From: Eledone cirrhosa
Taxonomy: Eukaryota
Assembly (NCBI GenBank): GCA_964016885.1
Contig: OZ024755.1
Span: forward strand, 12,028,001 to 12,092,000
Direction of reading: 5' to 3'
DNA length: 64,000 bases
Below the pieces are notes generated by a model. That model did not search any database and had not been told where the DNA came from. It worked only from the letters and a program-made list of their open reading frames with translations. The stretch's first letter is position 1; each line of letters begins with the position of its first letter. The position numbers and the translations under genes are program-made. Shown in pieces: positions 61,184 to 61,998 of this stretch.

Positions 61184-61998
61184 AAGTATGTATACGTACA
61201 TTCACATATGTGTACAGACGTACAATAGTATGTATATATATACATACATGCACACATATATATATGTACGTATGGATTTACCGAACATTTATTATAATGT
61301 TCGGTTTGTCTGTAAACAAACATCCCGAATTAAGCCGTACAGTGTTTAGCAACTATCGTTGCCCTTTTGTTCAACACTGACAAAGGAACGATATAATAAA
61401 TGTTCGGTAAATCCATACGTACATATATATATATATGTGTGCATGTATGTATATATATACATACTACTGTACGTCTGTACACATATATGTATGTACGTAT
61501 ACATGCTCATATTTAAGTAACAGCCGTACTAAGAGTGAGAAATGAAATTTCGTTTCATTTTTTCCATTTATCGTTTTCGGTGCGCCCGGCTGATTAACTC
61601 ACTCGATATGCAAATTAGGCTGCTCGGCCGTTAATATGCACAAGGAAAGTAAATACTTTCAGACGTTCAATCATCTGGCAGGAAGGTATACGGTGCTGAC
61701 GATAGCTAATAAGCTTGAAACTAATACATCGTTGCTTTGTCAGTGTTGAACAAAAGGGCAACGATGGTTGCTAAACACTGTACGGCTTAATTCGGGATGT
61801 TTGTTTACAAACAAACCTAGCATTATAATAAATGTTCGGTAAATCCATACGTACATATATATATGTGTGCATGTATGTATATATATACATACTACTGTAC
61901 GTATGTACACATATATGTATGTACGTATACATACTTATATTTAAGTAACAGCCTTACTAAGAGTGAGAAATGAAATTTCGTTTCATTTTTTCCATTTA
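61184..61998. mobile_element. Family H: inverted arm plus about 1.4 tandem ~430 bp monomers
   Basis: Antisense arm 61184-61392. The sense part repeats tgttcggtaaatcc at 61401 and 61833, and the tail end at 61570 and 61998. Confidence 0.88.
61690..61732 (+). ncRNA. Type I hammerhead ribozyme (family H)
   Basis: acggtg-CTGACGA-tagctaataagctt-GAAA-CTAA-TA-catcgt. Confidence 0.82.

Follow-up and report, generated by a model that had tools for sequence, protein, structure and literature searches.

The locus analysed here occupies positions 61128 to 62123 of the window, by which we mean the whole 64,000-nt stretch of DNA under analysis, and consists of a short, inverted retroelement insertion lying between two (TA)n target tracts. 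The left tract (61128..61184), whose boundary with the element is ambiguous over several nucleotides, is followed by an inverted, 5'-truncated arm on the minus strand (61177..61392), then a head-to-head junction (61386..61398), a 5'-truncated partial unit of 179 nt (61392..61570, plus strand) that comprises a TA-rich hairpin and a tail and is without a hammerhead, and a full unit of 428 nt (61571..61998, plus strand) that runs into the right tract (61998..62123). The full unit belongs to a repeat family that we term H, and is 93% identical to the genome's 422-nt majority unit. It carries, all on the plus strand, the motif ATGCAAAT (61608..61615), a type I hammerhead (61690..61732) with cleavage predicted after 61726, a TA-rich imperfect hairpin (61843..61935) common to a second family, E, and a 'tail' of ∼58 nt (61940..61998), with a hairpin at its end, that separates two alternative 3' ends of the family, referred to here as short and long. 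Aligning the families shows ATGCAAAT to be present in both H and E, and we take it to be the so-called 'octamer'; its function is putative, and it has been lost in one E sublineage that nevertheless spread. No ORF of at least 120 amino acids is present at the H locus, nor any ORF with reverse transcriptase (RT) and GIY-YIG domains in or beside the element.

The two arms end differently. The outer end of the inverted arm is a short 3' end, without the tail, while that of the sense arm is a long 3' end. The inverted arm (61177/61185-61392) is 95% complementary to 61722-61943, and its inner end, ...aacgat at 61392, falls 1-2 nt 3' of the predicted cut. At the junction the antisense strand shows imperfect microhomology with an internal palindrome, the point at which the sense arm resumes (the BLAST alignments overlap by 7 nt). 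An earlier, sequence-only reading of this DNA described a sense part of about 1.4 tandem units, in agreement with the 1.42 units we measure (the 179-nt partial unit plus the 428-nt full unit), and an antisense arm halting near the predicted cut, which is confirmed, as a statement of position only. Its description of the locus as a 'closed monomer' is not supported: there is a single hammerhead, and a circular monomer was neither observed nor is obtainable from the copy at 61184-61998.

The hammerhead, on the plus strand, is made up of a 6-bp stem I (61690-95/61727-32), the core (61696-702), a 4-bp stem II with a U.U pair at its base (61703-16), GAA (61717-19) and a short palindromic helix III (61720-25). 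The form is a 6-bp stem I, a 4-bp stem II and a helix III of 1-2 bp with a palindromic loop, the same as that described for canonical metazoan type I hammerheads, which are dimer-dependent (PMC4209133, in its accessible part). No Rfam family matched anywhere in the window at the gathering score, and no hammerhead family matched either H copy of the window up to E=10, the only hits there being sub-threshold miRNA-like matches on the TA-rich hairpins. Thus our assignment of the hammerhead is based on its core, stems and covariation, and not on Rfam. Among ten subfamily hammerheads the core is invariant in all ten, 93.8% of cells are paired, and 6 of 16 pairs show a double-sided change, while slid controls are at most 50% paired; it is important to note that these ten are hand-picked, related representatives, that family E contributes most of the double changes, and that pair counting ignores kinship, such that the counts are support rather than a significance test. 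The stem I covariation previously proposed, acggtg/catcgt in the copy at 61690 against acgttg/cagcgt in the copy at 3469-3960, holds as a swap of G.U for U.G at a position that shows four pair types among the representatives, and by pair counting on multiple copies the covariation of stems I and II between subfamilies is upheld.

The window copy departs from its family at two sites, G>A at 61724 and C>G at 61734. The family base is G at the former (99.8% of summed contig depth) and C at the latter (98.7%), both in run X1, which consists of contigs of unrecorded library type and was used for allele frequency only. We considered whether the helix III change marks a lineage and rejected this, as 413 genomic matches show a mixture of A, C and T at this site; the change is thus ordinary decay. 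Folding predicts dimeric helix III at −6.8 kcal/mol for the family sequence compared with +1.8 kcal/mol for the window copy, so G>A at 61724 would abolish dimeric helix III. In the modelled whole-locus transcript stem I pairs with a probability of ∼0.0001, compared with at least 0.92 for the isolated unit, since the antisense arm is predicted to capture stem I. Excision of a monomer is in any case impossible where only a single hammerhead is present. With one hammerhead, a private mutation of helix III and a stem I predicted to be sequestered, the window copy is probably dead as a source of circles.

Family H is nonetheless abundant. In the 3.0-Gb genome searched, exact matches number 12,451 for the H 24-mer immediately 3' of the cut and 5,232 for an E 28-mer. 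The best 40 of 1704 H candidates are spread over many contigs at 95-97% identity, the self match aside, and the 422-nt majority unit was derived from 37 full units. The true ends of both families run into (TA)n, and arrays reach at least 8 units in H and at least 20 in E. Two hammerheads on one strand are found in 13 of 57 sampled H loci, and the family therefore qualifies as a retrozyme, with the single-hammerhead window copy as a monomer derivative. The window contains a second H insertion (3469..3960), with a minus arm that spans unit positions 11-364 and has an intact hammerhead, and a plus arm that spans 287-422; the tail is on the shorter arm and absent from the longer. Family E is represented at 28329..30285 by 467-bp units in three minus and two plus pieces, with short and long ends. 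A smaller inverted E insertion at 31240-31790 also has long and short ends, and a repeated filler of ∼27 nt at its junction.

H and E align end to end, and their non-TA parts give a local score of 189.5, compared with 105 ± 7 (maximum 127.5) in 300 shuffles, leading us to regard them, on this alignment, as sister families homologous over the whole unit. The proposal that H is an independent family using the same machinery as E is thus half right: the insertion signature described below is common to both, which bears out the shared machinery, while homology over the whole unit contradicts independence. Similarly, both tails do carry a hairpin (z about −2.9) followed by tttATCGT, as had been noted, though not as a terminus, given that TCGT opens the next unit. 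Elsewhere in the genome, very long, young head-to-head E arrays lie at G000:C5:39858500-39885900 (L219 and L220, ∼50 units), C1:56387000-56402000 (L189 and L190, ∼24 units) and C18:30950486-30961703 (∼25 units). A divergent E subfamily (L150 and L198, G000:C1:95645500-95654500) forms an array of ∼20 units and has a compensatory change in stem II, and in a young E sublineage of 69 units at 7 loci, three A>G changes (L188, 4080-4100) destroy ATGCAAAT.

The insertions share a signature that is most clearly seen at their outer ends. Among 88 outer 3' ends of H insertions, 33 fall at the short site and 38 at the long site, ∼58 nt apart, and 71 of the 88 abut TA-rich DNA, a figure for which background was not computed in a genome that is itself TA-rich. 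Any target-site duplication is indiscernible within (TA)n. H 5' ends, on the other hand, are scattered over unit positions 1-388. Of 58 H insertions sampled consecutively on contig C1, each chosen as holding the 24-mer, 30 are arranged head-to-head. Both ends could be classified in 44 of 58 inverted H insertions, the other 14 having an unclassifiable end; 42 of the 44 pair a short with a long end, two have two long ends and none has two short ends. Collapsing the duplicated locus L115 leaves 40 of 42 H inversions with one short and one long end (p=2e-10). The longer arm has the short end in 26 H inversions, compared with 16 the other way around. In family E all 11 classifiable inversions, of 13, likewise pair one short with one long end, and further E loci conform. 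This short-plus-long rule suggests to us twin priming from two start sites on the RNA. We did not find this reading in the literature searched, while the one-sided tail of Penelope-like insertions is already published.

Before taking this further, it is necessary to ask what else could place an arm end beside a predicted ribozyme cut. One explanation is that a hammerhead-cleaved monomer served as the template, such that reverse transcription ran off at the cut and thereby fixed the end of the inverted arm. The window copy, ending 1-2 nt away, suits this idea, as do a few other copies that end near the cut (L032, whose join is nearly identical to the window junction, L115, L126 and L019). As a feature of the family, however, an arm ending at the cleavage site shows no enrichment. 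A pattern selecting 5' truncations at unit positions 124-158 gave 854 matches, of which the first 100 were classified by eye; 37 indels or shifts were dropped and 63 true ends kept, and 6 of these 63 lie within 1 nt of the cut (positions 148-150) compared with 5.4 expected over the 35-nt zone (p=0.46). The independent C1 sample has 60 inversion ends, scattered over unit positions 1-388; three of them come within 5 nt of the cut, compared with 1.6 expected (p=0.21). The majority of arms pass straight through the cut site, the H copy at 3469-3960 breaks ∼140 nt from it, the window junction sits in microhomology, and in the accessible text of PMC11167929 no RNA reads start or end at the hammerhead cut of a Penelope-like element (PLE). 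We consider run-off at the cut highly improbable; the end of the window arm beside the cut is chance plus microhomology. Scarcely credible, in our view, is that H and E are a satellite or minisatellite, arising where DNA was duplicated locally and folded back at arbitrary breakpoints, with the hammerhead a chance or fossil motif. Local amplification does leave its traces, since nested partial alleles typical of it occur in some long arrays (the C5 array and L189), and the H tandem L010 is a recent exact duplicate. Against this, 3' ends are fixed at two sites within (TA)n, the rule of one short and one long end is upheld, and a very young haplotype has dispersed as ready-made arrays over at least five contigs. 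Furthermore, pieces within one locus diverge by a median of 3.6-3.9%, almost all of it private changes, compared with 5.8-6.5% between loci; pieces closer to each other than to those of other loci, yet differing by private changes, therefore arose together, and not through recent duplication in place. Such duplication at arbitrary breakpoints, which the sequence-only reading had itself set against its retrozyme interpretation, is rejected.

More serious are the alternatives that accept reverse transcription and differ over how the second arm arose and what was copied. The first strand could have primed itself, or been copied by fold-back, to give the inverted arm, or the arm could stem from an antisense template, as PMC3846280 proposes for Penelope in its accessible part. 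Consistent with fold-back, arm junctions frequently overlap in microhomology or palindromes (20 of 48 by at least 2 nt), and the two arms of an insertion are always of the same haplotype. However, in at least 5 of the 26 H inversions with a short-ended longer arm the tail is present only on the shorter arm (L117, L126, L127, L165 and the window copy at 3469), and the arms of one E locus, L093, are without any overlap. In these cases (at least five H and one E) the shorter arm holds sequence that the longer lacks, and so fold-back copying cannot yield it. A sense template also better fits the alleles common to all pieces of an insertion, which are A>G-biased on the hammerhead strand: rare alleles common to all pieces comprise 13 A>G compared with 1 T>C, while unit-private alleles number 36 and 34 (Fisher p=0.006), with the caveats that 3 of the 13 are clustered and that polarity was taken from the majority base. 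This bias is a hint, and not proof, of an A-to-I edited sense template. We therefore regard an origin by fold-back or from an antisense template as unlikely. As for the template itself, it could have been linear: a multimeric transcript reading through a homogeneous master array would need no circle and would make the hammerhead a passenger. Long homogeneous arrays of at least 20 units exist, one young E haplotype comprises 69 units at 7 loci, among which an array of 17+8 units could supply one of 7+13, and L112 and L195 show period-2 allele patterns; hammerhead mutants also insert regardless in vitro (PMC11167929, accessible part). Weighing against a linear template are the invariance of the hammerhead core and the covariation of its stems between H and E despite wide divergence elsewhere, as well as the circles demonstrated for other animal retrozymes (PMC7229834, accessible part). 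Matching of the outer units of the two arms, which L196, L201 and L202 suggested as a sign of a multimer template, was not upheld overall, with outer units matching no more than inner ones (7 versus 8 alleles in 29 insertions); no heterogeneous multimer is therefore recorded. Arms of up to at least 13 identical units share haplotypes, and such arms, together with the unmatched outer units, would fit a monomer circle. We also considered the triple A>G change in L188 as proof of one edited circle copied 20 times, and rejected this, the haplotype occupying 7 loci. Nested alleles in the C5 E array and L189, where one arm carries a period-3 allele, weaken the view that the long arrays are pure rolling-circle products. 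The linear template is thus a plausible reading that we would sooner bet against.

Since H and E units are non-coding, we looked to the coding PLEs of the genome. There are 10,596 GIY-YIG candidates genome-wide, of which 150 were listed and 40 PLE loci examined; in none of these 40 does H or E serve as the terminal repeat of a coding element, and the H sequence present in L094 is a separate insertion in (TA)n. Both RT and GIY-YIG domains were matched in Pfam in 9 of 12 scanned ORFs, and most of 18 C-termini have a cysteine motif ahead of the nuclease, which we read as Neptune-type by the description in the accessible part of PMC8557442. One coding RT and GIY-YIG family, A, has a two-end geometry like that of H; its tail measures 62 nt and it forms a partial tandem. 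Its hammerhead is a variant in which U3/A8 replace C3/G8 while the stems are intact and helix III is palindromic, the window copy having been read by eye. Inversions of family A pair a short with a long end in five cases (window 4178-4525, L088, L092, L094 and L179) and two short ends in one (L134). Terminal-repeat stumps of family A lie in the window at 4178-4525, 5376-5541 and 63951-64000, and at L083, L084, L088, L092 and L094. A head-to-head stump of another coding PLE family, C, lies at 58875-59263, with hammerheads at 59028 (minus) and 59110 (plus); others are at L086, L087, L090 and L097, and a candidate family C copy at ∼4972 of the window turned out not to be one. A scan with a degenerate hammerhead pattern gave only H and E variants among the 100 listed of 171 matches. 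Separately, other repeats at 60737-61055, 62525-62747, 30310-30610 and 2540-2630, comprising one direct repeat of 1.x units (∼180 bp) and several perfect inverted repeats with (TA)n on either side, are possibly further PLE-type stumps. Loosely matching CTGANGA...GAAA motifs at 35040, 36620, 40676, 52581 and 62277 (plus) and 30808 (minus), in some cases with a TA run behind them, may represent hammerheads from further PLE families.

Taking these results together, we are rather confident that the window element represents, in decayed form, a non-autonomous retroelement that bears a hammerhead and depends on Penelope, that is, an animal non-LTR retrozyme, sister to E. In the cycle we propose, tandem loci would be transcribed on the hammerhead strand, and paired hammerheads, judging by their structure and the literature, would dimerise at the palindromic helix III to release RNA of unit length capable of circularising. 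The RT/GIY-YIG protein of a coding PLE, probably Neptune-type, would then nick (TA)n, and cDNA would be primed at either of the two fixed sites ∼58 nt apart that the pattern of ends reveals. In about half of insertions priming would take place on both target ends, with the short site used for one and the long site for the other, a twin priming to which the paired ends point. The two cDNAs would stop at arbitrary points and be joined head-to-head, often via microhomology, the window junction presumably being one such arbitrary join that by chance lies beside the cut site. The hammerhead-cleavage step may be dispensable, because 8 of 9 Xenopus retrozyme dimers failed to cleave (bioRxiv 10.64898/2026.07.22.740005) and PLE insertion proceeds in vitro with no need for hammerhead cleavage (PMC11167929), as reported in the accessible parts of these sources.

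We offer more tentatively, and with somewhat less than even confidence, the proposal that the insertions of H and E together make up a large natural archive of the Penelope reaction. A dimeric RT-endonuclease would prime the two target strands from a single sense RNA, using for each strand a different one of the two fixed sites that flank the tail; this RNA may be circular, copied over many rounds and in some cases A-to-I edited. If true, dimeric two-site priming would explain the long-noted inverted repeat with a one-sided tail, and would settle the question of a sense or an antisense template. The accessible text of PMC8557442 names the origin of the tandem and inverted structures of PLEs, and their microsatellite bias, as unsolved. 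Taken singly, the window locus is unremarkable, one more dead member of a class already described. It is the H and E families that provide a test bed for the twin-priming rule, for circle versus linear template and for the template strand, a single genome offering over 12,000 matches to the H motif and over 5,000 to the E motif, very young multi-unit arrays included.

Inversions of this general kind have a precedent in LINE-1 twin priming, where cDNA synthesis on a single RNA is primed from both target strands, and joining through microhomology gives a 5' inversion. H and E differ from LINE-1 in that the second start is a fixed site, both outer ends are 3' ends of the element, and the arms may be multi-unit. 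The comparison with PLEs is closer. The Penelope pattern, as set out in the accessible parts of PMC8557442 and PMC3846280, is one of a partial tandem, an inverted truncated copy and a one-sided tail, and two start sites of reverse transcription corresponding to the tail have been reported in vitro (PMC11167929, accessible part). With Neptune-type PLEs as these three sources describe them, H and E share partial tandems, an adjacent inverted, 5'-truncated copy, a tail at one end, a (TA)n target and a hammerhead near the 3' end, alongside the two RT start sites of PLEs. They differ in having no ORF and a whole unit of only 422-467 bp, in a tail of 58-68 nt (62 nt in family A) compared with the 30-40 bp described for PLEs, and in a canonical hammerhead with a 6-bp stem I and a 4-bp stem II, compared with the minimal form of PLEs.

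Turning to retrozymes, the accessible text of PMC7229834 identifies animal tandem repeats with type I hammerheads as non-LTR retrozymes, with circles shown in coral, mussel and axolotl, and records the proposal that they use PLE machinery, while a 2026 preprint (Li, Clavereau and Pollet, bioRxiv 10.64898/2026.07.22.740005), in its accessible part, ties retrozymes to PLE terminal repeats. The word 'inverted' occurs 0 times in the available text of PMC7229834, which describes neither head-to-head inversions nor two fixed 3' ends; that of PMC2377424 and PMC13282606 holds nothing specific to H, with 'ribozyme' occurring 0 times in the latter. Unlike published retrozymes, for which the same accessible literature reports expression, self-cleavage and circles, H is known here from its sequence, and among the 40 loci examined no coding PLE has a terminal repeat linked to it in sequence. 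In most other respects the likeness to non-LTR retrozymes, as far as the available texts describe them, is close: the H unit is non-coding, low in GC, tandem and a few hundred bp long (published range 150-450 bp), each unit carries one canonical type I hammerhead with a short palindromic helix III, the U.U pair at the base of stem II recalls axolotl HHR_Amex2, and thousands of dispersed copies, from monomers to multimers, exist alongside coding PLEs. Judged by these features, H fits the known class of non-LTR retrozymes, with the insertion signature of a PLE.
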